Assembly (NCBI GenBank): GCA_963664875.1
Contig: OY761611.1
Coordinates: forward strand, 2,208,001 to 2,272,000
Source of the DNA: Candidatus Kapaibacterium sp.
GTDB lineage: Bacteria > Bacteroidota > Ignavibacteria > Kapaibacteriales > UBA2268
Direction: 5' to 3'
DNA length: 64,000 bases
The notes under the pieces are model-generated. The model had not been told where the DNA came from. It saw only the letters and a list, made by a program, of their open reading frames with translations, and did no database searches. Shown in pieces: positions 21,262 through 61,965 of the stretch. Position 1 is the stretch's first letter, and every line of letters starts with the position of its first letter. Position numbers and translations under genes: made by a program.

Positions 21262-21582
21262 TATCAACCCCTTAAATTGTAATAGAAGCATTATCTATAA
21301 GAAGGATGAATAGAATATTTGTTTTTATCTCATCCGATAACAAATGATGCAATACTTTCATCTATCTGTTGTTTATATATAAAGACTTATTTTTTGGTAA
21401 AGCAAATAAAAGGAAAATTATTTGTTTTAAGTTTATGAGCCTTCGTATTGAAAAGTCCCTTATAATATAATTCTATAAGAGAACTAATAGTCTATTACTA
21501 TATTTATTTTGTTTCAAATTATGTCAATTATGACTATATTTGATTTGTAACTGTCTATCACATGTTTTTTTTAGGAGCATTT

Positions 21583-28301: not shown

Positions 28302-28377
28302 TTTGTTATCCCATAGTAGTTTAAAAAAATATACCACAAGACGGTGAATATTGTTATATATTTCTCGGTATTATTAC

Positions 28378-30408: not shown

Positions 30409-30412
30409 TATA

Positions 30413-33724: not shown

Positions 33725-34098
33725 CTCACACCCCAAATAGATATATTTATAAAAAAAGATATTTCAAATAAGTATATTGACTGCCAAGTAGTTAAATGAT
33801 TGGTATATAGCTCCGCTACGCGTAATAGCTATGATGCCAATAATCATATTGAAGTAGTATAATTATATGATATTCAGCCTTGTGCAGACAGATACCTTCC
33901 GCTTATGCGAAACGAATCGATGAAATATTACAATACTAATTCAAAAACTAACACTTTGCTTTAAAAGCCAATTTCTTTGATAATCTAAATATGAGGTACG
34001 AAACAAACATGAAGGCAGTATAACTGCGGAACAGTCGGAATTGAACCTCATTGCATTCGTAAAGCGCGAATGTATATATATTGCTATAATCAATGAGA

Positions 34099-43209: not shown

Positions 43210-43517
43210 ATCCCACCTATTTCACTACAACAATCTTCTTCATTGCCGAAACTTCGCCGTTGTGTTTTACATTCAGGAAATATGTGCCTGCTGTAAGGTC
43301 GTCCGGCAAATTGAAACTGAGGGCGTGTTGAGTGCCTGCTGTGAGATGCTCTGAGGCAAGCGACAGCTCGAACTCTCTTCCGCTGAGGTCGCTGATTGAA
43401 TAAGAATAGTCGCCTGACTGTTGCACTTCGAATGACACGCTAAGGCTTGCGCCTAAGTAAACAGGATTAGGATTTGCCGCAAGGCTGTTTATCTTTCGCC
43501 TTAGTTCGGATATGGAG
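43210..43517. repeat. 308-bp direct repeat copy 2 (T9SS CTD-coding module)
   Basis: Matches 41444-41751 with 7 substitutions. Confidence 0.95.
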
Positions 43518-44653: not shown

Positions 44654-44681
44654 TCTGTTTTCTCCTGATATATATAGGAAA

Positions 44682-44705
44682 GGGTAGAGCAGAAAAGCTC
44701 TACCC
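44682..44705 (-). terminator. Intercistronic stem-loop
   Basis: gggtagagc-agaaaa-gctctaccc. Confidence 0.55.
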
Positions 44706-44725
44706 AATTTGATTTAATAAACTAA

Positions 44726-45775
44726 CTACTTAGTGATTGTAAGCATTATTGTATCGATTTTTGTTTCTTCTGCGTAGATAGATACCGTATAGGTTCCCGA
44801 GGAAAGATTGGAAATATCGTATGATGAAACATTTGAGTTTTGAGTAGTTTCAAATACAACATTACCTAATACATCTGTTACTATGATGTTGTAAACCTGT
44901 TTGCTGTAATCGTCGATCCTTACGGTCAAATTGTCATCAGCCGGATTTGGAGATACTTTTACAGTAGTTCCGATATTATCAGTAGTTGCCAATTTACCTG
45001 CACTTGCCTCAAAGTAAGTATTTAAATCAGCACAAGAGTATTTACAATCCAAATCAGGGCATACATCTTCTCCTGCATAGTCCACAACTACCTCTCTTAC
45101 ACCATTGTTTATGGTAATAGTATTCGGAGGATTAAATCCTTCATCGTATCCAAAATGCCAATAGGCTATGCAGCACGGAGAACCATCACACCCCATCATG
45201 GAAACATCAGAATGGAATATAATTTCTCCTGTTTCAGAATCGTAATGAAAAGGCATTTCCGGCCAATATTCATCTCCTTTTAAAGCAACTAATCTTTTAT
45301 CGATTGCAACAAAACCAATTTCTTCATTTTTTGATTTGCATGTTGCAGTACTTGCTACCCATACTTGTGCATCCATGGTGCTAGTGTTTTGTGTGAATTT
45401 TTCAATAAGCTTTATTTCCAAATATCCGAAGATATCTACAATGCCGTTCAAATCACGGAAACCACCATTGACCAAATCATAGAAATTATGAGTACATCCG
45501 GGCTGAGATTCGTTAATATCTACCCTCGTTACAGAAATGGCAGGTAAGCCATTAGGCATTGTTGCTATGTAATATTCGTACATAACATAACAGCCGCAAG
45601 GGAGTTGCATCATTTCGACTCTACGATCGCCCCATACAACTGTTTCATTCAAGATTTTGTCGCAAGGCGGTTTGCCTTCGAATCTTTCTTCTGTGTGAGC
45701 GAAAGTATTGGTAGGAATACCAAAAGAAAAAGCTAGCAAGATGCATAAAAGCATGAGCTGAATAAAATTTTTCAT
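44726..45775 (-). CDS. Cysteine-rich secreted protein of unknown function with T9SS C-terminal sorting domain
   Basis: Signal peptide; 11 Cys in the mature region; CTD VKVSPNPADD...SNLSSGTY...LTITK. Confidence 0.8.
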   Translation of the reverse strand: MKNFIQLMLLCILLAFSFGIPTNTFAHTEERFEGKPPCDKILNETVVWGDRRVEMMQLPCGCYVMYEYYIATMPNGLPAISVTRVDINESQPGCTHNFYDLVNGGFRDLNGIVDIFGYLEIKLIEKFTQNTSTMDAQVWVASTATCKSKNEEIGFVAIDKRLVALKGDEYWPEMPFHYDSETGEIIFHSDVSMMGCDGSPCCIAYWHFGYDEGFNPPNTITINNGVREVVVDYAGEDVCPDLDCKYSCADLNTYFEASAGKLATTDNIGTTVKVSPNPADDNLTVRIDDYSKQVYNIIVTDVLGNVVFETTQNSNVSSYDISNLSSGTYTVSIYAEETKIDTIMLTITK

Positions 45776-46046: not shown

Positions 46047-46180
46047 ATGCACAAAAAAAACCGCAGTATTGTAAAAATAACTGCGGTTTTAGATTCTTAG
46101 ATTTTATAGTAAAATCAATAAACAGAATAATCCTATCTATACACTACAAATCTGCCATTTATAAACTTATCATTTGCCAC
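46047..46180. repeat. 134-bp perfect direct repeat copy 2 (native 3' end and terminator of the FN3 gene)
   Basis: Identical to 43056-43189; terminator hairpin at 46053-46090. Confidence 0.95.
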
Positions 46181-48766
46181 GATTGTGTAAGTGTAAACAC
46201 CCGCTACCAAGTCGCTGACATTTAGGCGAATTGTTTGTGTGCCGGCGGCTAATTGCTGCATTGGAAGAGCAATAACTTTGCTGCCTGATGCATCAAAGAT
46301 ATCCACAGTAACATTAGTTAACGTGCTTAGCTCTAAGCTAATGGAAGTTTCAGTCTGAGCCGGATTAGGATAAACATTAACATCGCCACCAAATTCCTGA
46401 TAATCAGCAACAGAAGTTTCATCTTCTGTAGTAAACGAATAAACCGGAGACCAAGTAGTTTCACCAGCTTCGTTGTATGCTTTTATTCTCCAGAAATAAG
46501 TAGTATTGTAATCCAAATCCTGTAGATAAAGGTCATTAGTCCAGTAATTTTCTTTTTCGTAAACCATGTTGCCGAACTGATTATCTTTAGCTACCTGCAC
46601 ATGGTAATACAAAGCATTTGGCACTACAGCCCATTCTAAAGTAATGTCAGTAAGCATTTCAGTAGCATTGTCAGCAGGGAATACCAAAACAACATCGCCT
46701 TCTGGAGCTTTCATAATTGTTCTAAATTTCCAGGCTTCAGACCACTGAGAGTAACCTGAATCATTAAGAGCACGAACTCTCCAGTAGTATTGAGTATTGT
46801 TTTTCAAGCCGCTATATGAAGCAGTAGTGTCTGCCAAATCTTTAAGCTCAGCAGTAAGAGTAACAAAAGCGTCGCGTTCTGCGATTTGCAATTCGTAAGA
46901 GTCCGCACCTTCAGTAGTAAACCAAGTGAAAGTGATATTAGTATCCAATTTTGTTTCGCTCTTCGCCGGGTACTCTAACATAGGTTTAGCAGGACCTGCA
47001 ATAATAGTAGTGAAAGCATAAGCTTGAGACCAAGGACCATTACCTTCTGCATTGCGAGCGTAAACTCTCCACCAATATTTAGTGTTAGGAGCAAAAATAG
47101 CAGCTTGCACGCTATTGGCAGGAATGTCTCTGACTTCAGTTACAGGATTAGCAAACAAAGAGTCAGTTGCTACTTCAACAACATAAGTTTCGGCAAGCGG
47201 CACTGATGTCCATCTGAAAAGCACATTGTGAACTACATCAATAGCACCATCAGCAGGGAAAGTAAGCTCAGGAGCACCAATAGAAGTTCTAAATTTGTGA
47301 GTTTCAGTCCATTCACTTTCGCAATCGCCAAGCATTGCTTTCACGCGCCAGAAATAATTAGTATTAAAAGTGTCAAGAGCAAAAGCAAAAGAGTTATTGA
47401 TACCTGTGAGAGTGTCCAAAATCAATAAAGTATCAACGAAGTTAGAATCTTTGCTAAGTTGCAATCTGTAGTTATCGTGAGCATCAGCAAATGACCATGC
47501 AAATTCCATAATTTTGCTGATACCTGTCATATTTTGAGCAGGGAAAGTAAGCACAGGAGCCAATAAAGCACTTGTAAAGCTATGAATTTCGCTCCATTCG
47601 CCGGTGTTTTTAGCATCCATGGCTCTAACTCTCCAGAAGAACTCATAGTTTGATCTATCAAGAGGAACAACTACAAAGTTTGTATCTATATCAGCAACAT
47701 CAAAAGCGATGTGATTGACAAAATCATTTGTATATGCTATCTGAATCTGATAAGCATCTGCATTAGGAACTTCAGTCCACTCAAAAGCAGCATTGATATC
47801 AACGCAAAGAGCTTCGTGTTCCGGCATAGTAGTAGCCGGAGCTTCGTAGCGAGTCCAAAAAGCAAAAACATCAGAGTAGTCAGACCAGCATGAGTTAGTG
47901 TCGCCTTTAACTTTCCAGAAGTACTTAGTACCTTTTGCAAGTTCGGAAACAGAGTAGCTTGTGTCAGTGGTCATGAAAATCTGAGCATCGTCGAAGTTTT
48001 CTTTGTCAGCCACCATTAACTGATAATTTTGGAACTCTACATCAGCAGACCAAAGGAGATTGACATTTACATCTAAATTAGATGCGTTATTTGCAGGAGT
48101 CAAAGCAATTGGTTTTTGAGCAGCAGTTGTAACTCTGAATGTCTGAGACCAATCAGATTTGCAGTTAAGATATTCTCTTCTGACTTTCCAGAAGTAGTCT
48201 GTCAAAAAGCCACTTAAATGTCCAATATAGAAGTTAGTGTCAACTTCTTCGAAATGGATGGTATCAGTGAAGTCAACATTTGTAGAAATCCAAATTTCGT
48301 AAGTGTTGCTTGCATCTGCTTCTGTCCAAGAGAATTCTACATTCTGAGGCAGACAGGAAGTATTGTTATCCGGCAAAGTAAGCACTACCGGCTCAGTTTC
48401 AGTAGCAAAAGTGTATTCCATAGAGTACTCAGTAGTGTAATCATCAAAAGTAGTGATTACTCTCCAGAAATAATCAGTAGAAAAGTTAGGCAAATCAACT
48501 GTAACTGCGTTAGTGTCCACAGTCTGATTTGTTACGAAAGTAGAAAAATCCTGAGCAGCAGATACCTGAAGGACATAGTTCATGACCCTGTTAGAGTCTT
48601 TTACAGTCCAAGTAAATTCTGTGGAAATTTCCTGACATATTGCATTGTTAGCAGGTGATTGCAACACAGCAGCGTCGAAGGAAAACAGACTGCCTGTGCT
48701 TACAATGCTTACCAACAGAAGCAATAAGAAGTGTCTTAATAATTTGCTATTTAGCCTCATGGCCAA
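46133..48766 (-). CDS. Fibronectin type III-like repeat protein (8 repeats) with T9SS C-terminal sorting domain
   Basis: Eight ~95-aa units P.L..PA.....F.W......Y..Q.....F......Y(F/Y)WRV.A......WS....F.T; CTD VYPNPAQ...GVYTY...FVVYR. Confidence 0.88.
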   Translation of the reverse strand: MAMRLNSKLLRHFLLLLLVSIVSTGSLFSFDAAVLQSPANNAICQEISTEFTWTVKDSNRVMNYVLQVSAAQDFSTFVTNQTVDTNAVTVDLPNFSTDYFWRVITTFDDYTTEYSMEYTFATETEPVVLTLPDNNTSCLPQNVEFSWTEADASNTYEIWISTNVDFTDTIHFEEVDTNFYIGHLSGFLTDYFWKVRREYLNCKSDWSQTFRVTTAAQKPIALTPANNASNLDVNVNLLWSADVEFQNYQLMVADKENFDDAQIFMTTDTSYSVSELAKGTKYFWKVKGDTNSCWSDYSDVFAFWTRYEAPATTMPEHEALCVDINAAFEWTEVPNADAYQIQIAYTNDFVNHIAFDVADIDTNFVVVPLDRSNYEFFWRVRAMDAKNTGEWSEIHSFTSALLAPVLTFPAQNMTGISKIMEFAWSFADAHDNYRLQLSKDSNFVDTLLILDTLTGINNSFAFALDTFNTNYFWRVKAMLGDCESEWTETHKFRTSIGAPELTFPADGAIDVVHNVLFRWTSVPLAETYVVEVATDSLFANPVTEVRDIPANSVQAAIFAPNTKYWWRVYARNAEGNGPWSQAYAFTTIIAGPAKPMLEYPAKSETKLDTNITFTWFTTEGADSYELQIAERDAFVTLTAELKDLADTTASYSGLKNNTQYYWRVRALNDSGYSQWSEAWKFRTIMKAPEGDVVLVFPADNATEMLTDITLEWAVVPNALYYHVQVAKDNQFGNMVYEKENYWTNDLYLQDLDYNTTYFWRIKAYNEAGETTWSPVYSFTTEDETSVADYQEFGGDVNVYPNPAQTETSISLELSTLTNVTVDIFDASGSKVIALPMQQLAAGTQTIRLNVSDLVAGVYTYTIVANDKFINGRFVVYR

Positions 48767-49481
48767 ACTCCAAGTTGTGATTAAAACTATATATTTAGCT
48801 GTATATTACAAATTTACGGATAAATGGATAAAGTTCATTATTAATAATGTTGCATATTTGTAGCATTATTTTGTTAGTTTAGTTCTTTAATATCAAGACA
48901 TTACATGCAAAAATCATACCGATATATATTGGCGAAAAATAATATCAATATTTGCTATACCTTATAATATAAGACACATTTAGAGTAAAAAAGTTATTCT
49001 TGCACCCTGAATAGAGAGAAAGCAAAGAATTTGTCTATATTTTCCGTGATAGGCATACTATTGCACTTTGATATTTAAAACGATTTCTGCAATTAGCTAT
49101 GACCTTATCTGTCAATTTTATTACTATCAAATCCGATTAAAATAAAATATTCTGAAATTAAAACACTCAGCTGTCAGAATTGAATTCGAACATAGTTATT
49201 TTTTGCACAAAGAGAATCCTATATAGGCGATTTTTAGCAATTATAGGCTATTATAAAGTTTCTTTTATCTGTATTAACATTGAAATTACTTTAGACTAAA
49301 GTAGAAATAAAATACTTAGAGATGCGTATTAATAATAAGTGCCTTTGACTTTGGTATTTTCTTTTATATTACTGATAAATTGGTAGTCCCACTTTTCATA
49401 TAAACACAAAAGATGCGACTGCTTCAGTCTAATCTAAAATGGCAATCATTGTTATTATCAAATATTTTTGAGGGAATCGCT

Positions 49482-49988
49482 ATGAAAAAGAATGTTACAC
49501 TAATCTCCTTATTTGCATTTGTAGCTTTGCTGTTTGCTACGGCTTTAGCTCAAAAACCTGCACCGGCAAACGTTGCTGCGGCACTTACCGTAAAGATTGC
49601 GGGTTTTAACAAAAATCTCACAGGAGATATTACTATCTATGTTGTCGGCAATGATGACATAGCATCTGAGTTAAAAAAAGCAGTAGGCAAACCTCTCGGT
49701 GGTGGTACTTTAAAAAGTGTAACTACCGGTAGCGGAGCACCTTCTTCTAAACCATCTATTATTTTTATTTCTAATGCAGGTGCAGTTGGAGCTATTACAA
49801 AATACTCAAGAGCAAACAAAGTGCTTACAGTAACTAACGATCCGGGTATCGTTTCTGATGGTGCTACTCTTGGTGTAGTGGTTGGCGATGACGGCAAACC
49901 AAAAATCTTACTTAACCTAACTTCATCTGTAGAAGAAGGCGTAGATTGGAACCCTGCAATTATGAAAGTAGCTCAAACAATTAAGTAA
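49482..49988 (+). CDS. YfiR/HmsC-like (DUF4154) periplasmic protein
   Basis: Signal peptide MKKNVT...ALA; C-terminal KVLTVT.....V..GATLGV....KPKILLNL....EGVDW...IMKVA motif typical of the YfiR family; no Cys. Confidence 0.72.
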   Translation: MKKNVTLISLFAFVALLFATALAQKPAPANVAAALTVKIAGFNKNLTGDITIYVVGNDDIASELKKAVGKPLGGGTLKSVTTGSGAPSSKPSIIFISNAGAVGAITKYSRANKVLTVTNDPGIVSDGATLGVVVGDDGKPKILLNLTSSVEEGVDWNPAIMKVAQTIK

Positions 49989-50009
49989 CAGATGTGGTTG
50001 GGATTTTAT

Positions 50010-53000
50010 ATGAATACAAAATCGATTAAGTTCAAAATACTGTTGCTGATTGCAGGTATCGACATTGTTTTGTCACTGATTCTTGCGATTTATGCTCCTC
50101 AGCAGGCTGAAAGCATGGGTAACAGTATAACAAATCAGAATGCTAATTTTATTGCCGAACTTGTAGCAGAAAATGTATCTTTGGGCCTTCAGACTATGAT
50201 TATAGATGACGGTGCAGCTCTTCAGCAAACACTTGACATACTGAAGCCCAAAAGTGACAAAAGTAAAAAAGACAAAGCTAAAGAAGCGGAAACTATCTCG
50301 AATGTATATGTTTATGATGCAGATCTTGCTCTTTTAAAAGCAACTGACACTGCAGCGACTGCTAAACAAAAGAATTTTAAAAAATCAAAAAATATAGAAT
50401 TCAAACACACAGATGATTTGCTTACAGCTTGGATGCCGGTAAAAGATGCTGATGCCAATGTGCAGGGCTACGTGCAGATAGATTTCTCGTTGGATTATCT
50501 CAATCAACGCGTCTCCGAACAAAGTGCTACTTTTGCTACTATTGCTGTTATAGTATTCATCCTGACAATGATACTTGGTTACTTCTTCCTTAACACAATG
50601 GTTAAGAAGCTGGTAGTCATCACTGATGCCGCACAAAAAATTGCTGTCGGCGATGTAGATATTACTATTGATGTAGTCTCGAATGACGAAATAGGCCAGT
50701 TAGCCGAATCTTTCAAAGAAATTATTCAAAGCTTTAAAGACAAAGCCAATGTGGCTATTGAAATTGCAAACGGTAATCTTAACGTCCGTGCAAATGTGCT
50801 TTCTGAGAAGGACATTCTTGGTTCGTCCATGAATACTATGAAAGACAACATCAGCAATTTGGCCAAAGATGTCAAATCACTCGCTTTAGACGCACAAAAT
50901 GGTGTTTTAGATTCTAGAGCAGACATCAGCAAACATCAGGGCGACTTTAGAGTAATTGTAGAAGGTATGAATAACACTCTCGATTCTGTAATTAGCCCAC
51001 TAAATATGGCAGCAAATTACATTGATAGAATATCTAAGGGTGATTTGCCTGAAAAAATCAAAGATGAGTTTAAAGGTGAATTTAATACAATCAAAAACAA
51101 CCTAAATATTGCGATTGATGCAATTGGGGCTCTAATCGCCGATGCGAATATGCTTGCAGGAGCTGCAGTTAGCGGTAACCTTGGTGCCAGAGCCGACGTT
51201 ACTAAACATCAAGGCGATTTCAGAGCTATCATCGAAGGTGTCAATAATACATTAGATGCTGTTATTGCTCCATTAAATCTTACTGCTGACTACATCGACA
51301 GAATTTCTAAGGGCGATATCCCAGATAAAATTACTCAAGCATACAAAGGTGAATTTAATACCCTAATTAATAACCTCAATGTATGTATTGGCGCTATAGA
51401 CAATATGATAGAAGACACAATGTCGCTTGTTAGTGCTGCTGCAGAAGGCAAGCTCAAAAACAGAGCTCAGGCAGACAGACATCAGGGTGATTTCAGAAAA
51501 ATCATTCAGGGATTTAACGATACTTTAGATAATATTCTTACACCTGTAAATGATGCAATGGCTGCTGTAGCAAAACAGGCAAAAGGCGAATTTGCAATCA
51601 TAGACAAAGTTTACAAAGGCGACTACGAAACAATCAAACGCAATGTAAACGATGTATCAAGAGCATTTACAGCGATTACGGAGCAATTCAACAACCTTTC
51701 TGAAGCAGGCAATGCAGGCAATCTTAGTTTCCGCGGTGATGCAACAGAATTCCAGGGAGATTTCCAGAAAATAGTTGAAATAGTAAACCAAACTCTTGAT
51801 AATATCCTAACACCGCTAAATGAAGCAATGGATGCACTCGCCGAAGTTGCTCAAGGTAATTTTGTAGTTATAGACAAAGTTTATAATGGTGATTATGAAG
51901 GTATCAAGCAAAACGTAAATAATGTTTCTAATGCCATGATAGAGATGAAAGGGCAATTTAATTTGCTATCTAATGCAGGCACGAACGGTAATCTTCAATT
52001 CCGTGGCAATGCGGAGCAGTTCCATGGCGATTTCAAAGAGATAGTTCTAATTGTCAATCAAACTTTAGACAATATACTTACTCCTCTCAATGAAGCAATG
52101 AATGCTTTGGCTGAAGTTGCCCAAGGTAACTTGTTTGTTATCGAAAAGCAATATCAAGGCGATTATGAAACAATCAAGCAGAATGTAAACAACGTTTCTA
52201 AAACACTAATCGACATGACACACCAATTTGAATTGCTTGCCGATGCAGGTGACAATGGCAAATTGAGTTACCGTGGCAACGCAGACCAATTCCAGGGAGA
52301 TTTCAAAAAAATCGTTCAAATTGTTAATCAGTCATTAGATAATATCATCAATCCTTTGTATATGACAGCGGACAATCTAAACCGCATATCTAAGGGAGAT
52401 ATTCCTCCTATAATTAAAGATGACTACAAAGGTGATTTCAACGAAATTAAAGAAAGCATCAATCAGTGTATCACTGCAGTTAACAACCTTGTTGCAGATG
52501 CAAATATGCTTGCAGAGTCTGCCGTCTCCGGTAACTTAAATGTTAGGGCAGATGCCGGCAAACATCAAGGTGATTTTGCTAGAGTTATCGAAGGTGTAAA
52601 TAATACTCTTGATGCAATTGTTGATCCTATCAATGAAGCAAACGAAGTCTTAAGTGTGTTGGCAACCGGGGACTTTACTGTGCAGATGCATGGAAATTAC
52701 CGAGGTGATCACCAAAAAATCAAAGAAAATATCAACACACTTGTATTTTCTCTTTCTAAACTAATTCGACAGCTTAACGAAGCAGTAGATACAGTAAGTA
52801 ATTCGACAAATCACATTTCTACAATCACTGACACTATGGTTATTGCGGCAAACAACCAAAATAATCAGATAGAAGAAGTAGCCACTGCGATAGAGGAAAT
52901 GAGCAAAACTGTATATGACAATGCAAATGCAGCAACTCAAACTGCCTCAATGGCGCAGGACAATGGTAGCATTGCTCAAGATGGCGGCAAAATTGTAGAA

Positions 53001-53663
53001 CAAACCGTTCATAAAATGAGAGACATTGCAGCTGTTGTAAATCAATCTGCTGAAAAAATTGCTGCTCTTGGTGAGTCCGGAAAGGCTATTGGCGAGATTG
53101 TCTCTGTTATCAATGACATTGCTGATCAGACCAACCTGCTTGCATTAAACGCAGCTATAGAAGCTGCCAGAGCTGGCGAGCAGGGAAGAGGCTTTGCGGT
53201 AGTAGCTGATGAAGTGAGAAAACTTGCAGAAAGAACGACTGATGCTACAAAACAAATCGCCGGAATGATTAAAAACATTCAAGACGAAACACAAGATGCA
53301 GTTCGAGTGATGACTCATGGTAACGAAGAGGTAACTGTAGGTATCGAATATGCTGATAAAGCAGGTCAGGCACTTCGTTCTATTTTGAACAGTTCGGATC
53401 AGCTTCTTGGCATGATTAGTCAAATAGCTGCTGCTAACGAAGAGCAATCTGCTACTAGTGAACAGCTCGCTAAAAATGTTACTTCCATATCTGCTGTTAC
53501 TAATGATTCGACTCAAAAGATGCAAGAAATTGCCGGCTCTACAGAGGATTTGGTCAGACTTACAACTGAGCTGACTGAAATCATGGGACAGTTTGTTATT
53601 GAAGATATTAACAGTCATGGTTATAACAGATTAGATCATGGGGGACGGAAACTAAAGCCATAG
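50010..53663 (+). CDS. Methyl-accepting chemotaxis protein, single PAS-like (CHASE8-like) periplasmic sensor + poly-HAMP
   Basis: TM-~150 aa periplasmic domain-TM, long HAMP array with 270-bp internal repeats, MCP motif [38 protein letters not shown]. Confidence 0.92.
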
Positions 53664-53693
53664 ATATTTCTAATTCCACAAAATAAATTGCAA

Positions 53694-53729
53694 TCCGGGC
53701 AGTAAAGCACACTTCTAAATCTGCCCGGA
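53694..53729 (+). other. Intercistronic stem-loop (no U-tract)
   Basis: tccgggcag...ctgcccgga. Confidence 0.5.
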
Positions 53730-53757
53730 AAGCAAATAGTTTCAACTCGGAGGCATT

Positions 53758-55923
53758 ATGAAAAAGATGTTCCTATCTCTGATTGTTTTAATCACATTTT
53801 CAATGAATTTATCTGCCCAAGAGACTGATGAGTTATTAGATATGTCTCTTGATGAGCTTATGAATATCAAAGTAGTTTCTTCTACTAAAAAGGCAGAAAA
53901 AATCAGTAAAGCACCAAGTGTTATTAATAGTATCAGCAAACAGCAAAGAGACACTTACGGCTGGAATACAATTAATGACATTCTTTTTGCTCAACCCGGT
54001 TTTTTTCATTCCATCGACTTTGATCGACACACTGTAGGTTTCAGAGGAGCCTCAGAAAGTTGGAACAATAACCACTTGTTGATGCTAATCGATGGTATTC
54101 CTTACAATGACAACCAATATGGCTCAGCTTATACTTCAGAAGTTACTCCTTTGTTTTTTGCAAACAATATTGAAATAATTCGTGGCCCAGGCTCCGCATT
54201 ATATGGCTCAAACGCTACAAACGGCGTAATAAGCATCAATTCTGTAACCCCTAAAAAGGGTGAAAGCTCAATGGATATGCGTATGAGCTACGGCAGTTTT
54301 AATACAATGTCATTTGATGTGCTAAGCAATTACGATACTGACATTGCTTCTTTCAGCGTTGGCTACAATAAGTTTAAAACTGACGGTTTCGAATATGAAA
54401 CAGTAGATGGCTCAGGCCGTGCGAATGAAGCCGGAACATTACTAAAATTTGAAACTAACGACAACAGAAACAGCGACTACTTATATGCAAAAGTTCTCCC
54501 TAAGGGTGCACTTGAAGGATTGATGTTGCAGGTACATTTCCAAAGGTGGGAATTCGAAACAAATTATGGTTGGTTGTTTGCAGTGCCTGACATTGAAGAA
54601 TCTATGCACGAAAGCAGAAATATGATAGCACTTCGCTACAAACCGGAACTCGAAGGTCCGTTGCAGTTTGAAATTACAAGCAGATACCAGTATCACAAAA
54701 TCAACTGGTTTATGCAATTGTATCAGCATGGTGCTTTTGATAACTTTTATCCAGCAGGAGTAAATGAGTATCTGATAACAAATACAGAAGATTTATTCAC
54801 TAGAGTGCAGCTATCTTATGACTTCAATGATATAGGAACATCATTGTTGCTTGGTGCAGAATCAGATATCTTTTGGTATGGTGGCGAAGATAAGGAGCAT
54901 TCTTCGAATGTTGACCTTTCCGATACAGGCGAGCCGTTTCCTAACGGAGAAATGAGACCTTTAGGTCAATGGTTAGGCTGGATTGGCGATAATAAAGTAA
55001 TGAACTACGCAGCTTTCCTACAATTAACAAGTGGCAGTATCTTTTCTGATGATTTATCTGCTGTAGCAGGTTTCAGATATGACTATCAATCATTCGATTT
55101 CTTCACACTTGATGGGGCTGATCCTACCGCAACTCAGAATAAAACATTTTCACAGGTAGGCCCACGTATAGGATTAGTTTATCATCCAACTGAAGCTTTG
55201 TCTTTCAAAGCATTATTTGGTAAAGCATTCAGAGCGCCATCCCCTACTGAAATGTTTGGAGCTAACACATGGACGCTTGCTTCAAATGTCTCTACTATTA
55301 AACCTGAAGAGATTTACACAGCTGATTTTGCGATTGATTATATGCTAAATACAAATATCAATCTAAAATTGAATGCTTTTTACTCTGACTTCAGAAACAA
55401 AACAGCATATTCGCCAACAGGCAATAATGCCATTGCTAACATTTACAGCACTGAAACCGCCGGAGCAGAATTTGAAGTAAACTTCAAAATAGACGCTTTC
55501 TCAGGTTATCTCAATTACTCCTATACTCATCTTTTAGAAGAGACAATAGCCGAAGAGCAAAAAGTAGCAATATTTGAATCCGATGAGATTGTATGGGCAC
55601 CAAAAATGCTCCTCAAATACGGGATCAGTTACAAGCTGAGCGATTTTAGATTTACTTTGGCAGGCATTTACACAGATAAATTTCTGCGAAGAACAAGCGA
55701 CAATCTAATAGCTTCTAATTTAGATTTAAGAGGCAAAGAAGTAGATGCAAGTTTGGTATTAGACTTTAAAGCAGAGTATCAGATTTTAAAAAATATTAGA
55801 ATCAATGTGAAATTGAATAATATTCTCGATGCAGAATATTATATAATCAAAAATACTGACATGCCTTTCGACTATAAAATGCCGGGCATGAATTTATTAA
55901 GTCAAATAATTGTAGATATCTAA
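53758..55923 (+). CDS. TonB-dependent receptor (LLDMSLDELMNI N-terminal type)
   Basis: Plug motifs LLMLIDGIP and IEIIRGPGSALYGSNA..GVI; AFRAPS; C-terminal NILD..Y...PG; GGAGG RBS. Confidence 0.9.
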   Translation: MKKMFLSLIVLITFSMNLSAQETDELLDMSLDELMNIKVVSSTKKAEKISKAPSVINSISKQQRDTYGWNTINDILFAQPGFFHSIDFDRHTVGFRGASESWNNNHLLMLIDGIPYNDNQYGSAYTSEVTPLFFANNIEIIRGPGSALYGSNATNGVISINSVTPKKGESSMDMRMSYGSFNTMSFDVLSNYDTDIASFSVGYNKFKTDGFEYETVDGSGRANEAGTLLKFETNDNRNSDYLYAKVLPKGALEGLMLQVHFQRWEFETNYGWLFAVPDIEESMHESRNMIALRYKPELEGPLQFEITSRYQYHKINWFMQLYQHGAFDNFYPAGVNEYLITNTEDLFTRVQLSYDFNDIGTSLLLGAESDIFWYGGEDKEHSSNVDLSDTGEPFPNGEMRPLGQWLGWIGDNKVMNYAAFLQLTSGSIFSDDLSAVAGFRYDYQSFDFFTLDGADPTATQNKTFSQVGPRIGLVYHPTEALSFKALFGKAFRAPSPTEMFGANTWTLASNVSTIKPEEIYTADFAIDYMLNTNINLKLNAFYSDFRNKTAYSPTGNNAIANIYSTETAGAEFEVNFKIDAFSGYLNYSYTHLLEETIAEEQKVAIFESDEIVWAPKMLLKYGISYKLSDFRFTLAGIYTDKFLRRTSDNLIASNLDLRGKEVDASLVLDFKAEYQILKNIRINVKLNNILDAEYYIIKNTDMPFDYKMPGMNLLSQIIVDI

Positions 55924-55934
55924 TCAAATATATC

Positions 55935-55974
55935 AGGGTATGACTTACTTTGAAAGTAAGTCTGCCCTTTTTTT
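55935..55974 (+). terminator. Terminator-like hairpin between the two TonB-dependent receptor genes
   Basis: aggg..gacttactt-tga-aagtaagtc.gccct followed by a T run. Confidence 0.7.
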
Positions 55975-55988
55975 ATACAGGAGGATGT

Positions 55989-58007
55989 ATGAATTACAAA
56001 TTACTTCTATCTATTCTAATTGTTTTTTCCGCAATTAGTATGAAAGCTCAGGAGACTGATGAGTTATTAGATATGTCTCTTGACGAGCTTATGAATATCG
56101 AAGTTAGTGTTGCTTCTAAAAAAGCAGAATCTATCAATGATGCTCCGGGAATTATCACGGTAGTTACAAAGCATGAAATTGAAGGTTTTGGAGCTCAGCA
56201 TCTTGGTGATGTAATAAATAGAGTTGTCTCTATGTCTTTCCTTTCTGCAAACGTTTTTACAGATAATATTGCTAATATGCGTGCATCCGCTACTACTCCT
56301 TACGATAATCACGTGCTTATTCTCATGAATGGCAGACCAGTGAGAGATCCTATTTCAGGTGGCTTGAATCAGGCTGTTTATACAGGCTTCCCACTTGATA
56401 TGATTGAACGACTTGAGATTATCCGAGGTCCCGGCTCTGTACTTTATGGGTCTTGTGCTTATGCAGGAGTAATCAATATAGTAACTAAACAAGCTAAGCA
56501 AAACGAACAACACGGCACTATGGGCTTGACTTTAGGCAATGAAGAAACTTATGGCGGTAACGGATATATTGGTTTTGCTAAAGGTGATTTTAGTGCTAAT
56601 GTTGGTGTTATGGGATATTATACAGCCGGTCCTGAATTTGATTTTACTGATTATTCTAATGTAACAGATACTAATCATTTCTGGAGAAAAAATATTTCCG
56701 TAGCCGGTACTTTTAAGTTATCAGATTTCCAGGTAAATACTTTCTACTCTAATTACAGACCATACGGATTGAACGGACCTGATAACTCGTGGGATTATCC
56801 TGAAGAAGGTAAAAATCTTAATGACCACGAAGTATTTATGTTTGACTTAGGTTATTCTAAAGAAGTAAACAAATTCTTAGATATAAATGCAAATATTACT
56901 TTCAATAACCATTATTGGAATCAGGATGCCGGAACAGAAATGACTGCTCATGAGTTCCTTTCTGAATTGATGCTTGCTATTCATCCGATGGAAGATATGA
57001 ATATTTTGCTCGGTGGTACATTTATCAAATCAAAACAGATCAGTTCCCGATTTATTGGCGAGATTATGGATCAACTCGATGTTAACTCTTCAGTTTATAC
57101 TCAAATAGACTACCGCCCAATCGAAAACTTAAAATTGATTGCCGGTGCTCAGATGAATATGATTGAAGGATTAGATGCTAACATCTCTCCGCGTGTAGGT
57201 GCTATCTATAACTTCAATAAAGAACTCGGTGTAAAATTGCTTTACAGCTCAGCATTCAGAAAAGCCTACCCGTTAGAATACGGATTTAACCATCCTGTAT
57301 TCAGAGGTAATCCTGACATAAGTCCTGAACTTATAAATACCTTAGAAGCTCAGATTTTCTACCAAAAAGAAAAATTGTCATTAGCACTTACATTTTATAA
57401 TAGTGTGATGAATGATATCATCATCCGAACATGGTATGATGACCCTTCTGTTGATGTCGGTGGTGGCTACTTGAAATACGGCAACGGAAAAGATTTTACG
57501 TTTATGGGTATTGAGTTTGAAGCCAAGTATAGCTTTGACAGAAATTGGTTAGCTCTTGCATCATTCAACTGGCAAACCAATAAAAACCCTAACGGTTTAG
57601 GCGATGGTCAAGAACTGGAAAATGCGACATTGCATCCAAATATAATGGCAAAAGGCGGAATACTATACGATCAGGAAAAACTATCGATTGGTGTATTTGC
57701 ATCAATGTTTGGTGAGCCATACTCAGTGAACGAATACTACGGATATGAGCAAGACTCTGACAATTACAATAAACTTGTAGTAAATGAAGAAGGTGAATCA
57801 TATATATTGCTTTCTGCAAAAGCTACATTGAAATTAGATAAATTGCTACCTTTGAATACTGCCTATGGAGTAAATCTATCAATAGAAGCAGAAAACTTGC
57901 TTGATGAAACTATTAGATACCCTGAATTTACATCTAAAGGTAAAAATACTCTTATTCCTTTGAAATCAGGAATGGGATTATATGGAATAATATCTATAGT
58001 GTTCTAA
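55989..58007 (+). CDS. TonB-dependent receptor (LLDMSLDELMNI N-terminal type)
   Basis: Start MNYKLL after AGGAGG; VLILMNGRP, LEIIRGPGSVLYGS.AYAGVINIVTK, GNPDISPE, ENLLD; C-terminal F. Confidence 0.9.
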   Translation: MNYKLLLSILIVFSAISMKAQETDELLDMSLDELMNIEVSVASKKAESINDAPGIITVVTKHEIEGFGAQHLGDVINRVVSMSFLSANVFTDNIANMRASATTPYDNHVLILMNGRPVRDPISGGLNQAVYTGFPLDMIERLEIIRGPGSVLYGSCAYAGVINIVTKQAKQNEQHGTMGLTLGNEETYGGNGYIGFAKGDFSANVGVMGYYTAGPEFDFTDYSNVTDTNHFWRKNISVAGTFKLSDFQVNTFYSNYRPYGLNGPDNSWDYPEEGKNLNDHEVFMFDLGYSKEVNKFLDINANITFNNHYWNQDAGTEMTAHEFLSELMLAIHPMEDMNILLGGTFIKSKQISSRFIGEIMDQLDVNSSVYTQIDYRPIENLKLIAGAQMNMIEGLDANISPRVGAIYNFNKELGVKLLYSSAFRKAYPLEYGFNHPVFRGNPDISPELINTLEAQIFYQKEKLSLALTFYNSVMNDIIIRTWYDDPSVDVGGGYLKYGNGKDFTFMGIEFEAKYSFDRNWLALASFNWQTNKNPNGLGDGQELENATLHPNIMAKGGILYDQEKLSIGVFASMFGEPYSVNEYYGYEQDSDNYNKLVVNEEGESYILLSAKATLKLDKLLPLNTAYGVNLSIEAENLLDETIRYPEFTSKGKNTLIPLKSGMGLYGIISIVF

Positions 58008-58034
58008 GTCTTTTTTGGGCTTTCTACTTTTTTC

Positions 58035-58064
58035 AGGGTGGTTTTTAAATTAAAGCCACCCTTT
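58035..58064 (+). terminator. Rho-independent terminator
   Basis: agggtggttt...aaagccaccctttg. Confidence 0.65.
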
Positions 58065-58122
58065 GTATTTTAAGTTGTACTAAATAATGATAAATGTTGC
58101 TTATTAAAGGGTAGAATGACCT

Positions 58123-58497
58123 ATGAAAAGAATACTGATTTATGACGGAGATTGTGGTATCTGCTCTTATCTTGCCGCTTATGTTACAAAACGAACAAAA
58201 TCGCCATTGCATGCCTTGCCCGAAATTACGTCGGAGATTGAGAAAGATTATGGAGAAGAGCTGTCCGCTATGGCTAAATCAGGGGTATTGTTTATCGAGG
58301 CAGGGAGTGTCTTTTATAAAACACAAGCTGTAGGCAAATGTTTATTATTATTGCCCTATCCGATAAAGCTGTTGGCTTATTTGTTTACAAATAAAATGTT
58401 GGCTTACTTGTTTAATCCTATATATGATCTCATTGCGAGAAACCGACATAAAATATCGAGGTTATTCGGATTGGCAAGTTGCAAAATTAAATCCTGA
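58123..58497 (+). CDS. DCC1-like thiol-disulfide oxidoreductase family protein (DUF393)
   Basis: N-terminal YDGDCGIC motif and C-terminal YDLIARNRH. Confidence 0.85.
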   Translation: MKRILIYDGDCGICSYLAAYVTKRTKSPLHALPEITSEIEKDYGEELSAMAKSGVLFIEAGSVFYKTQAVGKCLLLLPYPIKLLAYLFTNKMLAYLFNPIYDLIARNRHKISRLFGLASCKIKS

Positions 58498-61400
58498 TTG
58501 ACATTACCCTTTCGATTTCTTCTAAAAGTCCATCGAAGTTAATGGGTTTAGTTATTCTACCGGAAAATCCATAATCTCTATAGTTTGCAACAATGGACTT
58601 ATCCGAATGTGCACTACAAACTATGGCTCTAATTTCAGGATTAAGTACAAGCAGTTTATTTAAAGTCTCTTCTCCTTCCATACCGCCTACGATAGTCAAA
58701 TCAAGAATCGCCAAGTCAAATGGTCGGCTTGTAAGATAAGCTTTTTGATATTCAATCAAAGCAGTTTCTCCTTTTGAGACAGAAACTACATTATGACCTG
58801 AAAGTTCTAATATTTCGGTCATACTTATTCGAAGTGCGTCATCGTCGTCCATGAGAAGGATTCGGTAACTGTTTTTCCTGATGATTTTTTCCTCAATCTG
58901 TTTTTTCACCATGATGCCATTCTTGTTAGCAGGCAAAAATATATTGAATTCTGTACCGATATTTTCCTGAGAGTGGACTTTGATAAAGCCTTTATGTTTT
59001 TTTATAATGAGATTGACAGTAGCAAGACCGAGACCGTGCCCGTTATCTTTAGTAGTAAAAAACGGATCGAATACCTTGCTTATTATGTTTTCAGGGATAC
59101 CAATACCTTCATCTCGGACAGATATTTTAACAAAATCGCCTGTAAACTTATTTACTTTAGGATTATCCAGAGTGCAGTTTTCGACATCTACATATATCTT
59201 GCCTTGCTTATTTTCCATAGCTTGTTTTGAGTTAAGGAAAAGATTAGTAAAAACTTCAGTAATTTGTTTTGTATCAATCTCAACATTCCAGACTTTGCGG
59301 TCATAATTATTAATATGCTGAACATTAGTACCACCAAGAGCTATACTTAGCGATTCATCAATAACTTCGCAAACATTAGCTATTTCTCTGACAGGTTCGC
59401 CTCCGGAAGAAAATGTCTGGAATCTGAGAGCAATAGCATTTGCCTGAGCGATAGTCTTTTCGATTCTGTCTGCATAGATATTAAGTTTGTCAGGTTTGCG
59501 TCTCGCCAAATCTACAGAAAGGCTAATCGAAGCAAGCATATTTTTAAAGTTATGTGCAATACCACTTGCGAGGACGCTTAGAGATTCGAGTTTTGCCATC
59601 TTTGTTAACTCTTCTTCAGCATATTTCCTTGCTGTAATATCGAGTATAAACCCTTCCAACCAGATAAGCCTGTCATTTTCGTATAGACCAATACCGTTTT
59701 CTTCTACCCATTTATAATTTCCGGTGATTCCTTGAATTCTGTATTCAATTCTAAAAGATTCGAGTTTAGCAACGGCATCGTTTATTGAACCCCTGACGTA
59801 ATCAAAATCCTCAGGATGAATAAGACTGTCGTAAGTCTTTGCTCCGTTCAGGAATAATTCTTTTGCATACCCGGTAAGTTTTTCAATTTCATCATTGAGA
59901 TAAATCATTGTATAATTAGCATCATTTTCGCAAAGGTATATAGTACCCGGGACATTTTCCGCAAGCAATCTGAATTGAGTTTCGCTCTGTCTTATTTTTG
60001 TTTCAGCTTCATTTCTCTCAGTAATATCTTCTATGGCAGCCTGAACTCCTATCACTTTGCCATTGTCAAACACAGGTGAAAGATAAGATTTCAAATAAAG
60101 ATTTTTTCCAAATCTGGAGTAGTAAGGAAATTCTGCAACAACATTTTGCTTTGAGTCAATACACTGTTCAAAATATTGAAATGTAGAAAACTTAAGGATA
60201 GAATCCTGCGACAAAATATTCTCACCAAGGCTCGCTTCTTTGCCGGGGGAACCTACCATATTTAGCATAGCAGTATTAATATCAAGGATATCTCCATCAA
60301 GATTCATATAAATGATACCAATTGGAGTATTTTCAAAGAGTCCTCTGTATTTTTGCTCGTTTTCAGAAATAATCGCTCTGGAATGTAATAGTTCCTGTTC
60401 CGCTCTTTTCCTTTGAGTGATATCGTGAACTATCGAATAGAGTCTTATCTTTCCGCCAATTTGCACTTTGCCGGCGTAAGATTCGATATCTCTGATTTCA
60501 CCATTAGCGAGTCTGTGCTTGAATTCAAAGTGATTTCTTTGCTCAGTAAAAGCCTTTTGAATTTCAACGGTAATTTGCTCAGGAGTAAGAATATTGATAT
60601 TGCTGATATTTATTCTTGTTATTTCTTCGTAGGTGTAGCCATAGTAACGACACGCAGCTTCATTAGCATCTAAAATATCGCCGGTTTCAGGTTCGATAAG
60701 AAGCATAATACTGTAGCTCGTTCTGAACAAAGACTCATACCGGTCTCTCGCTTCTGAAAGCTCTTTTTCGAGTTTTCGCTTTATTTGGAGATTATAGGCT
60801 AAAATAAAAATGATTAGAACAACAAGAGTGAGAAGAAAAGCGACTATGTAAAAAGTATTTTTACTAATAAAAATTATCTCTTGGGGCTGATTTATAAGCC
60901 TTGCATGTTCGGAAATATTGGCGAGATAAAGTCCAAATTTTTTGAGTACTTCAAAATCAAAAACAAGGGTATTCGGACTTTTTTTAATAACTTTTATTTT
61001 CGCCGGAGATGTCCCGTTAAATATAGAATCTACAAGCAACAATGCAGTTTTTGCCTGATTGGCATGACTGATTAGCTTTCCACCTGCGATACCGTCTCCG
61101 AGTCCATGCTCCCAAAGATGATAGACAGGAATCTTTGCCTTCTCTATAATCTTTTTCAGGCTGTATTCGAAAGTATAGTTTTTGTTTTCTGCATCTATAA
61201 AGCCGGAAAGAAGTAAAAATGCTTTATTCCCTTTGATTTTATCTATTTCATTTAAAAATCTGTCTAATTTGTACAAACTAAAATCCATTTCCGTAAATTT
61301 GATTTTTGGAAACTTTGAAGCCTCGGCGAAGAAATTCCTTTTATCCGCAAGCCCGGTTTCAGTATCATCTGTGATCGCAATAATTTCCTGTAAATTCGGA

Positions 61401-61870
61401 TTTAATTCATTTGCATGCTTTATAGTTTCATAGACAGATATATCTTCTACTACGCCGGTTACAAATTTATTTGTATCCTGTGAGTGAGCAAGTTCTTTGT
61501 TGTTGATGCCCCAAAATACAATAGGTATCCTTTGGAACAGGCTGTCTTGCATTTGCAATACAAATTGAAGTGCAAAGTCATCTGAAACAAGGACTAAGTC
61601 GAGATCAGTACATTTTTTGCGAACATATTCAAATCTTTCTTTGAGAATTGGAATATAATCGCTACTATTATATTTCTTTGCGTATAAGAACTGTGTTTCT
61701 ATCTGATTGTTGGTTTCCTTGGCATAAGCGTCAAGCACAGGCTTGATTTTTTCATAAGTCGGAAAATTCGGACTATAGGAATTAATATATAAAATATGCC
61801 TGCCTTCGTGTGCCGAGCATAACAAAGGAAAGATTGCAATGAAAAGAATTATATATTTTTGTATTCCCAT
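58487..61870 (-). CDS. Hybrid sensor histidine kinase (periplasmic ABC-substrate-binding-like sensor, 3 PAS, HisKA/HATPase, receiver)
   Basis: ILYINSYS periplasmic domain, TM, PAS repeats, SGIAHNFKN H-box, FDPFFTTK..GHGLGL, receiver ILLMDDD..DL.ILDL..KP. Confidence 0.9.
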   Translation of the reverse strand: MGIQKYIILFIAIFPLLCSAHEGRHILYINSYSPNFPTYEKIKPVLDAYAKETNNQIETQFLYAKKYNSSDYIPILKERFEYVRKKCTDLDLVLVSDDFALQFVLQMQDSLFQRIPIVFWGINNKELAHSQDTNKFVTGVVEDISVYETIKHANELNPNLQEIIAITDDTETGLADKRNFFAEASKFPKIKFTEMDFSLYKLDRFLNEIDKIKGNKAFLLLSGFIDAENKNYTFEYSLKKIIEKAKIPVYHLWEHGLGDGIAGGKLISHANQAKTALLLVDSIFNGTSPAKIKVIKKSPNTLVFDFEVLKKFGLYLANISEHARLINQPQEIIFISKNTFYIVAFLLTLVVLIIFILAYNLQIKRKLEKELSEARDRYESLFRTSYSIMLLIEPETGDILDANEAACRYYGYTYEEITRINISNINILTPEQITVEIQKAFTEQRNHFEFKHRLANGEIRDIESYAGKVQIGGKIRLYSIVHDITQRKRAEQELLHSRAIISENEQKYRGLFENTPIGIIYMNLDGDILDINTAMLNMVGSPGKEASLGENILSQDSILKFSTFQYFEQCIDSKQNVVAEFPYYSRFGKNLYLKSYLSPVFDNGKVIGVQAAIEDITERNEAETKIRQSETQFRLLAENVPGTIYLCENDANYTMIYLNDEIEKLTGYAKELFLNGAKTYDSLIHPEDFDYVRGSINDAVAKLESFRIEYRIQGITGNYKWVEENGIGLYENDRLIWLEGFILDITARKYAEEELTKMAKLESLSVLASGIAHNFKNMLASISLSVDLARRKPDKLNIYADRIEKTIAQANAIALRFQTFSSGGEPVREIANVCEVIDESLSIALGGTNVQHINNYDRKVWNVEIDTKQITEVFTNLFLNSKQAMENKQGKIYVDVENCTLDNPKVNKFTGDFVKISVRDEGIGIPENIISKVFDPFFTTKDNGHGLGLATVNLIIKKHKGFIKVHSQENIGTEFNIFLPANKNGIMVKKQIEEKIIRKNSYRILLMDDDDALRISMTEILELSGHNVVSVSKGETALIEYQKAYLTSRPFDLAILDLTIVGGMEGEETLNKLLVLNPEIRAIVCSAHSDKSIVANYRDYGFSGRITKPINFDGLLEEIERVMSIRI

Positions 61871-61965
61871 ATATATTATATACAAAGTAGGCATATATTT
61901 ATTTTAAGTATGTAGCCATAATATATGAAATATTTTATTAATTATACAAGTTGGTTTTTAAAAAT

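Follow-up and report, generated by a model that had tools for sequence, protein, structure and literature searches.

The window analysed here is a stretch of 64,000 nucleotides (nt) from contig OY761611.1 of Candidatus Kapaibacterium sp. (assembly GCA_963664875.1). At positions 49482-58007, it contains four genes, all on the plus strand and separated by intergenic gaps of 3, 94, and 26 nt, which encode a YfiR-like periplasmic protein, a poly-HAMP methyl-accepting chemotaxis protein (MCP), and two TonB-dependent receptors (TBDR1 and TBDR2). An earlier note made from the letters of the window had outlined these four co-oriented genes, whose strand and coordinates were found to match, and had proposed that the receptors signal through the YfiR-like protein to the chemoreceptor. 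Such a relay is plausible. The features of the cluster are listed in Table 1.

Table 1. Features of the YfiR-like/chemoreceptor/TBDR cluster and its intergenic regions (window coordinates; aa, amino acids; AF2, AlphaFold2).
Feature	Position	Strand	Evidence or remark
AT-rich upstream intergenic region, ~715 nt	48767..49481	+	Sequence; likely promoter region
YfiR-like periplasmic protein, 168 aa	49482..49988	+	PF13689, AF2 model, Foldseek
Poly-HAMP methyl-accepting chemotaxis protein, 1223 aa	49992..53663	+	HAMP, 7 HAMP_2, MCPsignal
Single Cache/PAS-like periplasmic sensor domain (predicted), aa 36-178	50097..50525	+	Hydropathy, AF2, Foldseek
HAMP (aa 199-247) followed by seven HAMP_2 stretches	50586..52946 (outer boundaries approximate)	+	Pfam
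MCP signalling domain, aa 986-1170	52947..53501	+	PF00015, E 2.7e-51
Imperfect inverted repeat, 22-nt arms, 77% complementary, GC-rich core	53681..53742	+	MCP-TBDR1 gap
TonB-dependent receptor 1, 721 aa	53758..55923	+	Plug (PF07715) and barrel (PF00593)
TBDR1 N-terminal extension and TonB-box region, aa 22-39, ETDELLDMSLDELMNIKV	53821..53874	+	Sequence, alignment
Perfect 10-bp hairpin followed by a T-run, terminator-like	55942..55962	+	Between TBDR1 and TBDR2
TonB-dependent receptor 2, 685 aa from TTG 55950	55950..58007	+	Plug (PF07715) and TonB_dep_Rec barrel (PF00593)
TBDR2 N-terminal extension and TonB-box region, aa 35-52, ETDELLDMSLDELMNIEV	56052..56105	+	Sequence, alignment
Strong terminator-like hairpin, 11 pairs, T-run	58035..58062	+	Closes the cluster

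The product of the first gene begins with a hydrophobic, signal-peptide-like leader. It matched the Pfam family PF13689 (DUF4154, 'YfiR/HmsC-like') with an E-value of 9.1e-12 and 45.7 bits against a cut-off of 24.9, the match covering profile positions 5-142 of 143. The AlphaFold2 model, calculated with 28 homologues, reached a pLDDT of 90.6 and a pTM of 0.82, and the best PDB matches of this model in Foldseek were the entries 4yn7, 4zhu, and 4xjy of Pseudomonas aeruginosa YfiR (E ~1e-4; TM-scores of 0.62-0.67 by query and 0.69-0.75 by target). The YfiR-like identity and the YfiR fold supposed in the earlier note were thereby supported by both the profile and the model. The top Foldseek matches also included Rhodothermus marinus 'substrate-binding protein' entries, and two-lobe binding proteins of the PF04392 type (3lft and 3lkv) matched the model over one lobe. 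Unlike P. aeruginosa YfiR, to which its sequence relation is marginal and for which two conserved disulfide pairs are described (PMC4655355), the window protein contains no Cys, and no conserved Cys was observed in the 28-sequence alignment of YfiR-like proteins. Because both disulfide pairs are missing, a disulfide-based redox input of the P. aeruginosa type is absent, as had been argued from the lack of Cys. In the same alignment, residues 130-162 hold 12 of the 19 invariant columns. As the C-terminal region of P. aeruginosa YfiR is reported to bind YfiB and to overlap the YfiN-binding residues (PMC4655355), the invariant C-terminal columns are consistent, by analogy, with the use of this region for both partners.

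The chemoreceptor probably starts near position 50010, judging from the starts of its homologues, and both its length and its poly-HAMP array are unusual. Two transmembrane segments predicted by hydropathy (about aa 14-35 and 180-203) enclose a periplasmic domain of about 143 residues. The AlphaFold2 model of residues 1-220 (pLDDT of 80) consists of a long helix, a five-stranded sheet, and a return helix, and the closest solved folds of the sensor domain in Foldseek were the extracellular domains of WalK/YycG, KinD, CitA, and PctA. According to the model, the periplasmic domain is a single Cache/PAS-type sensor, in agreement with the single PAS-like domain noticed earlier. Its expected relation to CHASE8 was not recovered above noise by any of the comparisons made. 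Pfam gave no family above threshold for the window domain (ArlS_N and dCache_1 remained below threshold) and no CHASE8 match; a scan of 31 members of the sensor family with CHASE8 (PF17152) gave weak matches in three, the best with an E-value of 0.0045; hhalign against E. coli DgcN alone gave no clear relation; and hhalign of the sensor family against a 14-sequence DgcN alignment returned a probability of 25% (E 7.7e-4), in register over 123 columns. The most conserved stretch of the sensor family is the first periplasmic helix, from F53 to G74. Malone 2012 highlights region 48-87 of YfiN (PMC3375315), and we infer by analogy that the two stretches may occupy the same relative position. Two more giant poly-HAMP chemoreceptors, divergently oriented, are encoded in the window at 17164-21291 (minus strand) and 21562-25842 (plus strand); they comprise 1375 and 1426 aa and carry dCache_3 and Cache_3-Cache_2 sensor domains. 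Given three poly-HAMP receptors in the window, the array is a habit of the genome and is not specific to the YfiR-linked receptor.

To survey the neighbourhood of the YfiR-like gene, its profile was searched in a species-level genome collection, and 40 loci from about a dozen phyla were obtained (numbered from L001). The nearest of them were L001, from a Candidatus Kapaibacterium metagenome-assembled genome, with 88% identity, and L002 with 84%; both keep the order YfiR-like gene, MCP, and TBDRs, possess a third TBDR, and have different flanking genes. Using profile searches and Pfam, a sensor with a homologous periplasmic domain was found in the cluster at 35 of the 40 loci, located directly downstream of the YfiR-like gene on the same strand at 33 and elsewhere in the cluster at two (L005 and L013). 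Among the remaining loci, L027 has a dCache_1 MCP in place of the homologous sensor, the contig edge was reached before the sensor position in L011 and L031, and no sensor was seen at L030 and L039. The output of the 35 sensors was an MCP in 30 (29 with MCPsignal by Pfam and L036 by phmmer only, the L036 sensor lying on the plus strand in a stop-to-stop scan of open reading frames (ORFs)), a HAMP-GAF-histidine kinase in three Calditrichota loci (L010, L017, and L021), and was cut off by the contig end in two (L022 and L033). When 129 further ORFs located no more than three genes away from the YfiR-like gene were scanned with Pfam, no other recurrent family emerged, the other neighbours of the pair being unrelated housekeeping genes. 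The conserved core therefore consists of the YfiR-like gene and the sensor, and this pair is the firmly conserved unit.

Several variants of the pair were recorded. Two YfiR-like copies each are present in L017, L035, and L039. At L028:5326-16053, the YfiR-like gene and its MCP are embedded in a series of four additional MCP genes, and CheW is encoded upstream. In two Acidobacteriota loci, L032 and L034, the pair is followed by a PilZ-domain protein of 376 aa and then by NAD synthase; in L037, a 377-aa ORF without a Pfam match takes the position of the PilZ protein, again ahead of NAD synthase.

In both TBDRs of the window cluster, the signal peptide is directly followed by ETDELLDMSLDELMNI and then by a TonB-box-like K/E-V-x-x-x-S segment. 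The likely start of TBDR2 is the ATG at 55989, behind GGAGGA. The back-translated MSLDELMNI pattern matched the window exactly twice (53842 and 56073), once in each cluster TBDR, against a chance expectation of 0.06, and at least two matches occurred in none of 100 shuffles; the common N-terminal motif described in the earlier note is thus a property of these two receptors in the window. The motif was not found in the third TBDR of the window (30413-32395, minus strand), whose N-terminus is ordinary. In a 25-sequence TBDR alignment, the motif window (consensus DLLDMSLDDLLNIEV) was the second most conserved 15-column stretch, with a value of 0.70; the universal plug motif alone was higher (0.81), and the mean was 0.41. 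All 23 TBDR ORFs with a complete N-terminus from the 40 loci contain the motif, 13 fitting a strict regular expression and 10 being variants recognised by eye. The STN domain (PF07660) was not found in the cluster TBDRs by Pfam, the conserved extension comprising only about 14 residues. A tblastn search of the N-terminal 80 aa of TBDR2 against plasmids gave no match; with the full TBDR2, 30 matches were listed, all beginning past the motif and having no bearing on its specificity.

TBDR homologues occur in the cluster at 21 of the 40 loci, or 21 of the 32 assessable ones, as a locus was called TBDR-less only when at least 2.5 kb was visible on both sides, and eight of the 40 were not judged. 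Regarding the conserved neighbourhood of TBDR, YfiR-like, and chemoreceptor genes envisaged in the earlier note, the pair stood (35 of 40 loci), and the motif-bearing TBDR held in part (21 of 40). The TBDR-positive loci belong to seven groups, Kapaibacteria, Calditrichota, Fibrobacterota, KSB1, Desulfobacterota, Marinimicrobia, and Lentisphaerota, and display at least six gene orders (T, TBDR; Y, YfiR-like gene; S, sensor), namely T>Y>S>, T<Y>S>, Y>S>T>, Y>S>T<, Y>T>S>, Y>T>Y>S>, and S<T>Y>T>. Every TBDR homologue detected by phmmer in the loci was inside the cluster, and Pfam added a single distant protein with TonB_C and a barrel, in L019. No TBDR accompanies the pair in L009, L016, L026, L028, L032, and L034-L039, and the clades without it are Acidobacteriota, Zixibacteria/GN15, and most Melioribacteraceae. 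On a tree of 45 YfiR-like sequences, the TBDR label changed 8 times compared with 15.3 times after shuffling, and none of 500 shuffles gave a value as low; since relatives share TBDR labels, this test shows clustering only. Two overlapping TBDR fragments located between two YfiR-like copies at L010:8791-9800 resemble a decayed second TBDR. Two ORFs with TonB_C are present at L019:2486-6288, a few genes away from the TBDR; one of them, of 966 aa, combines TonB_C with a TBDR barrel.

An exhaustive search with the YfiR-like profile among 1.84 billion cluster representatives yielded 2270 matches at E<=0.001, including 453 at E<=1e-10 and 118 at E<=1e-30. Among the best 150 of the 2270 matches, 11 unusually long proteins were scanned with Pfam, and two of them, P0215 (281 aa) and P0270 (245 aa, truncated), proved to be fusions of a YfiR-like domain with TonB_C. 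In each, the YfiR-like domain follows a signal peptide and is joined by a linker of about 30 residues to the TonB C-terminal domain, which was recognised with E-values of 3.1e-21 in P0215 and 6e-9 in P0270. Neither contains the membrane anchor or the proline-rich rod of TonB, so that read-through into an ordinary tonB gene is unlikely. The YfiR-like part of one fusion is closest to the TBDR-linked loci L005, L017, and L013, and that of the other to L013, L014, and L023. TonB_C is the module that pairs with the TonB boxes of TBDRs, and through the fusions, this YfiR-like subfamily is therefore connected with the N-terminus of the receptors in the periplasm. No published description of such fusions was found in the literature searched.

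Other long proteins of the same set have the YfiR-like domain at the C-terminus, behind TPR/YfiO-like or PEGA-containing parts (P0267, P0281, and P0314, of 514-536 aa, and P0211, of 356 aa), and in two Acidobacteriota loci lacking a TBDR, L032 and L034, TPR genes immediately precede the YfiR-like gene. These fusions and neighbours are hints of interchangeable outer partners in the lineages lacking a TBDR. Two Escherichia coli records, P0102 and P0103, unite CHASE8, DUF4154, and GGDEF; as yfiR and dgcN overlap in K-12, they are probably read-through products or merged gene calls.

Regarding the surroundings of the window cluster, the upstream intergenic region is divergent from a minus-strand gene at 46133-48766. 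An Rfam scan of 48500-58600 at E<=0.1 matched nothing and offered no riboswitch clue to the ligand. The inverted repeat within the 94-nt gap between the MCP and TBDR1 genes has no T-run. Directly after the terminator-like hairpin that closes the cluster, a gene for a DCC1-like thiol-disulfide oxidoreductase follows (58123-58497, plus strand), in the position occupied by the third TBDR in L001 and L002. A hybrid histidine kinase of 1135 aa (58487-61894, minus strand) is convergent with the cluster, and its N-terminal periplasmic region gave a sub-threshold match to ABC_sub_bind (PF04392; E 1.3e-4), the two-lobe relative of the YfiR fold according to Foldseek. This kinase was rejected as a part of the module, its N-terminal domain having no homologue in the 40 loci. 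The third TBDR gene is followed downstream by two ORFs without any Pfam family (29545-30426 and 28378-29457) and preceded upstream by the ORF 32399-33736. The latter encodes a type IX secretion C-terminal sorting domain, as do 43217-44707, 44726-45775, and 46133-48766, all on the minus strand. Such domains are in keeping with an organism of the Bacteroidota, Ignavibacteriota, or Kapaibacteria type.

In the YfiBNR system, YfiR represses YfiN via its periplasmic PAS-like domain, and YfiB sequesters YfiR (Malone 2012, PMC3375315). The same paper describes a modular YfiR-YfiN[PAS/HAMP] core for which kinase, GGDEF/EAL, and MCP outputs occur, 'MCP domains' replacing GGDEF in divergent Yfi homologues; the text in question does not name TonB (PMC3375315). 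The window cluster is like YfiBNR (TpbB/DgcN; P. aeruginosa and E. coli) in that the gene of a secreted protein of the DUF4154/YfiR fold immediately precedes that of an inner-membrane sensor with a PAS/Cache-like periplasmic domain and HAMP, and in that an outer-membrane protein is encoded alongside. In contrast to YfiBNR, a long poly-HAMP array leads to an MCP signalling domain as the output and not to GGDEF, and TBDRs are present instead of a YfiB-type OmpA/Pal lipoprotein, which Pfam did not reveal in 49482-58007; the OmpA-domain genes closest to the cluster occupy 26367-28337 and 14092-16722.

A relay from a TBDR to an inner-membrane sensor has been described for the PahS/PahP/PahK/PahR cluster of Cycloclasticus sp. 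P1, in which PahS is a TBDR of 687 aa (Wang 2023, PMC10570129). According to surface plasmon resonance, two-hybrid, and fluorescence resonance energy transfer data of that report, PahP binds PahS and, after ligand, PahK, and chemotaxis is named among the downstream responses (PMC10570129). Compared by architecture only, the two clusters share a TBDR, a periplasmic protein, and an inner-membrane sensor encoded together. As described there, PahP is a two-lobe solute-binding protein of 318 aa, unlike the single-lobe YfiR-like protein of 168 aa, and the output of PahK is a histidine kinase with a GacA-type regulator, compared with a chemoreceptor in the window.

Two other classical arrangements bear comparison. 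TBDRs of the FecA type pass ligand occupancy to the periplasm through an N-terminal extension. The window receptors are like the TonB-dependent transducers of the FecA-FecR-FecI type in having such an extension ahead of the TonB box; unlike the FecA STN domain of about 80 residues, it comprises about 14, and no anti-sigma or extracytoplasmic function (ECF) sigma gene was detected in the cluster by Pfam. LamB, maltose-binding protein (MBP), and Tar exemplify indirect chemoreception via a periplasmic binding protein, in which the passive porin LamB is combined with MBP, a two-lobe protein that also serves an ABC importer. The order of an outer-membrane channel, a soluble periplasmic protein, and an MCP periplasmic domain is the same in the window, which differs in having no ABC transporter in the cluster and a periplasmic protein of the repressor-type fold.

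NCBIfam contains the curated families NF053591 (TOL_0243, YfiR-like) and NF053590 (TOL_0244, TBDR), named after neighbouring locus tags. The YfiR-like protein scored 28.8 with NF053591 (equivalog cut-off of 125), and the two TBDRs scored 75.4 and 97.3 with NF053590 (cut-off of 645), which was the best NCBIfam match of TBDR2 (E 8.3e-28); both receptors aligned to the N-terminal 140-160 positions of the model. Because these scores are far below the equivalog cut-offs, the window proteins are, on sequence grounds, relatives and not members of the TOL_0243/TOL_0244 families. Receptors for haem, B12, and siderophores were the profile families nearest to the TBDRs, which scored far under each of these cut-offs. 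No paper on a cluster of TBDR, YfiR-like, and chemoreceptor genes was found in a search that left subscription journals mostly outside. The earlier statement that clusters of TBDR, YfiR, and kinase/GGDEF genes are little characterised calls for some restriction, as MCP outputs are mentioned in Malone 2012 and a relay from a TBDR to a kinase was studied experimentally in Wang 2023. Partner switching by YfiR and relays that lead from a TBDR to a sensor by way of a periplasmic adaptor are already known; new in the window cluster are the output to chemotaxis and the short extension of the TBDRs.

Based on these comparisons, the cluster is proposed to form a three-layer signalling module of the envelope, with a YfiR-type partner switch at its centre; this proposal has about an even chance of being correct as a whole. 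The Cache/PAS-like domain of the chemoreceptor would be bound in the periplasm by the secreted YfiR-like protein and kept in one signalling state, as suggested by the conserved pairing and the analogy with YfiR-YfiN. The motif-bearing TBDRs would take the role of YfiB in YfiBNR and of PahS in PahS/PahP/PahK. Ligand loading of a TBDR would expose its periplasmic N-terminus, including the conserved acidic extension and the TonB box, which would engage the YfiR-like protein; the occupancy of this protein on the chemoreceptor would then shift, and control of CheA and swimming would change. The physical contacts, the direction of signalling, and the ligand are all inferred. By analogy with YfiR-YfiN, the YfiR-like protein probably regulates the chemoreceptor. 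That the TBDRs feed into this pair is evenly poised, and a contact made by the N-terminal extension itself is rather doubtful. Equally tentative is the fuller proposal that the acidic extension of about 14 residues makes signal transmitters of otherwise ordinary TBDRs, so that the ligand-bound extension would capture the YfiR-like protein, free the Cache-like domain, and allow non-permeant ligands to steer motility without import. Within this proposal, the TonB box itself may capture the YfiR-like protein in the lineages with TonB_C fusions.

A number of observations weigh against the proposed relay. Classical YfiR, from P. aeruginosa or E. coli, is very weakly related in sequence to the window protein: a PDB profile search of the family found YfiR at no better than E 0.94, and the probability of a match to E. 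coli YfiR in hhalign was 1.5%. A CHASE8 identity of the sensor domain was not demonstrated. As the motif and the TonB box overlap, the conservation of the motif may partly reflect TonB docking only. Finally, the YfiR fold is half of a solute-binding protein and fits the role of a ligand carrier equally well. Import-coupled sensing similar to LamB/MBP/Tar would make use of this role: TonB-driven TBDRs would bring a large ligand into the periplasm, where the YfiR-like protein or the Cache domain would bind it, and the liganded YfiR-like protein would dock on the chemoreceptor, the TBDR N-terminus passing no signal. We regard this explanation as somewhat improbable. The R. marinus and PF04392-type entries among the Foldseek matches speak for it, together with the ordinary Plug, barrel, and TonB-box-like segment of the TBDRs, the small ligands commonly bound by Cache domains such as those of CitA and PctA, and the reported carriage of ligand by PahP to its kinase (PMC10570129). 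Against it, the single-lobe protein has no two-lobe binding cleft, its conservation is strongest in the region that serves as the partner surface of P. aeruginosa YfiR, and neither the constraint on the TBDR extension nor the TonB_C fusions are needed for simple import.

Two further points against the relay concern the receptors: the terminator-like hairpins separate the MCP, TBDR1, and TBDR2 genes, making co-transcription of the TBDR genes uncertain, and 11 of the 32 assessable loci have the pair without a nearby TBDR, which is thus not obligatory, at least in cis. Both agree with a self-contained periplasmic sensor formed by the YfiR-like protein and the MCP and responding to the state of the envelope or another cue, the TBDR genes being merely co-located or co-regulated transporters; likewise, the YfiR-YfiN[PAS] core is presented as ancient and the outer-membrane inputs as later in Malone 2012 (PMC3375315). 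This explanation is nevertheless unlikely, as TBDRs recur in 21 of the 32 assessable loci, in seven groups and many gene orders, with no other conserved neighbour, and all linked TBDRs possess the N-terminal motif. The recurrence in many gene orders and the TonB_C fusions, which point to a TBDR link, weaken the reading of the TBDR genes as merely co-located. The same fusions place the YfiR-like domain at TonB boxes, and L019 encodes TonB_C-containing proteins near its TBDR, as would be expected if the YfiR-like protein chiefly regulated the TBDRs or TonB coupling, for example by gating the TonB box, while the chemoreceptor reported occupancy indirectly or not at all. It is very improbable that this is its main function, considering that the invariant neighbour is the sensor (35 of 40 loci) and not the TBDR (21 of 40).

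Chemoreceptors are thought to sense what reaches the periplasm, and to our knowledge, TBDR signalling is known only towards anti-sigma/ECF sigma pairs. If the proposed relay from the TBDRs through the YfiR-like protein to the chemoreceptor is true, surface capture of scarce or bulky ligands would be linked to motility, and the YfiR partner-switch principle would be extended from the control of cyclic di-GMP (c-di-GMP) to chemotaxis. It would represent a second type of cell-surface signalling by TBDRs, independent of sigma and anti-sigma factors. The module would be open to testing through concrete components, namely a short peptide motif, a soluble protein of 15 kDa, and a sensor domain of 143 residues, and the TonB_C fusions hint independently at the way in which the adaptor gains access to the receptor. 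The phyla in which the module occurs, Kapaibacteria, Calditrichota, Fibrobacterota, Acidobacteriota, and Zixibacteria, are almost unstudied for signalling, and the relay would give chemotaxis a new input route spread over many such little-studied phyla.

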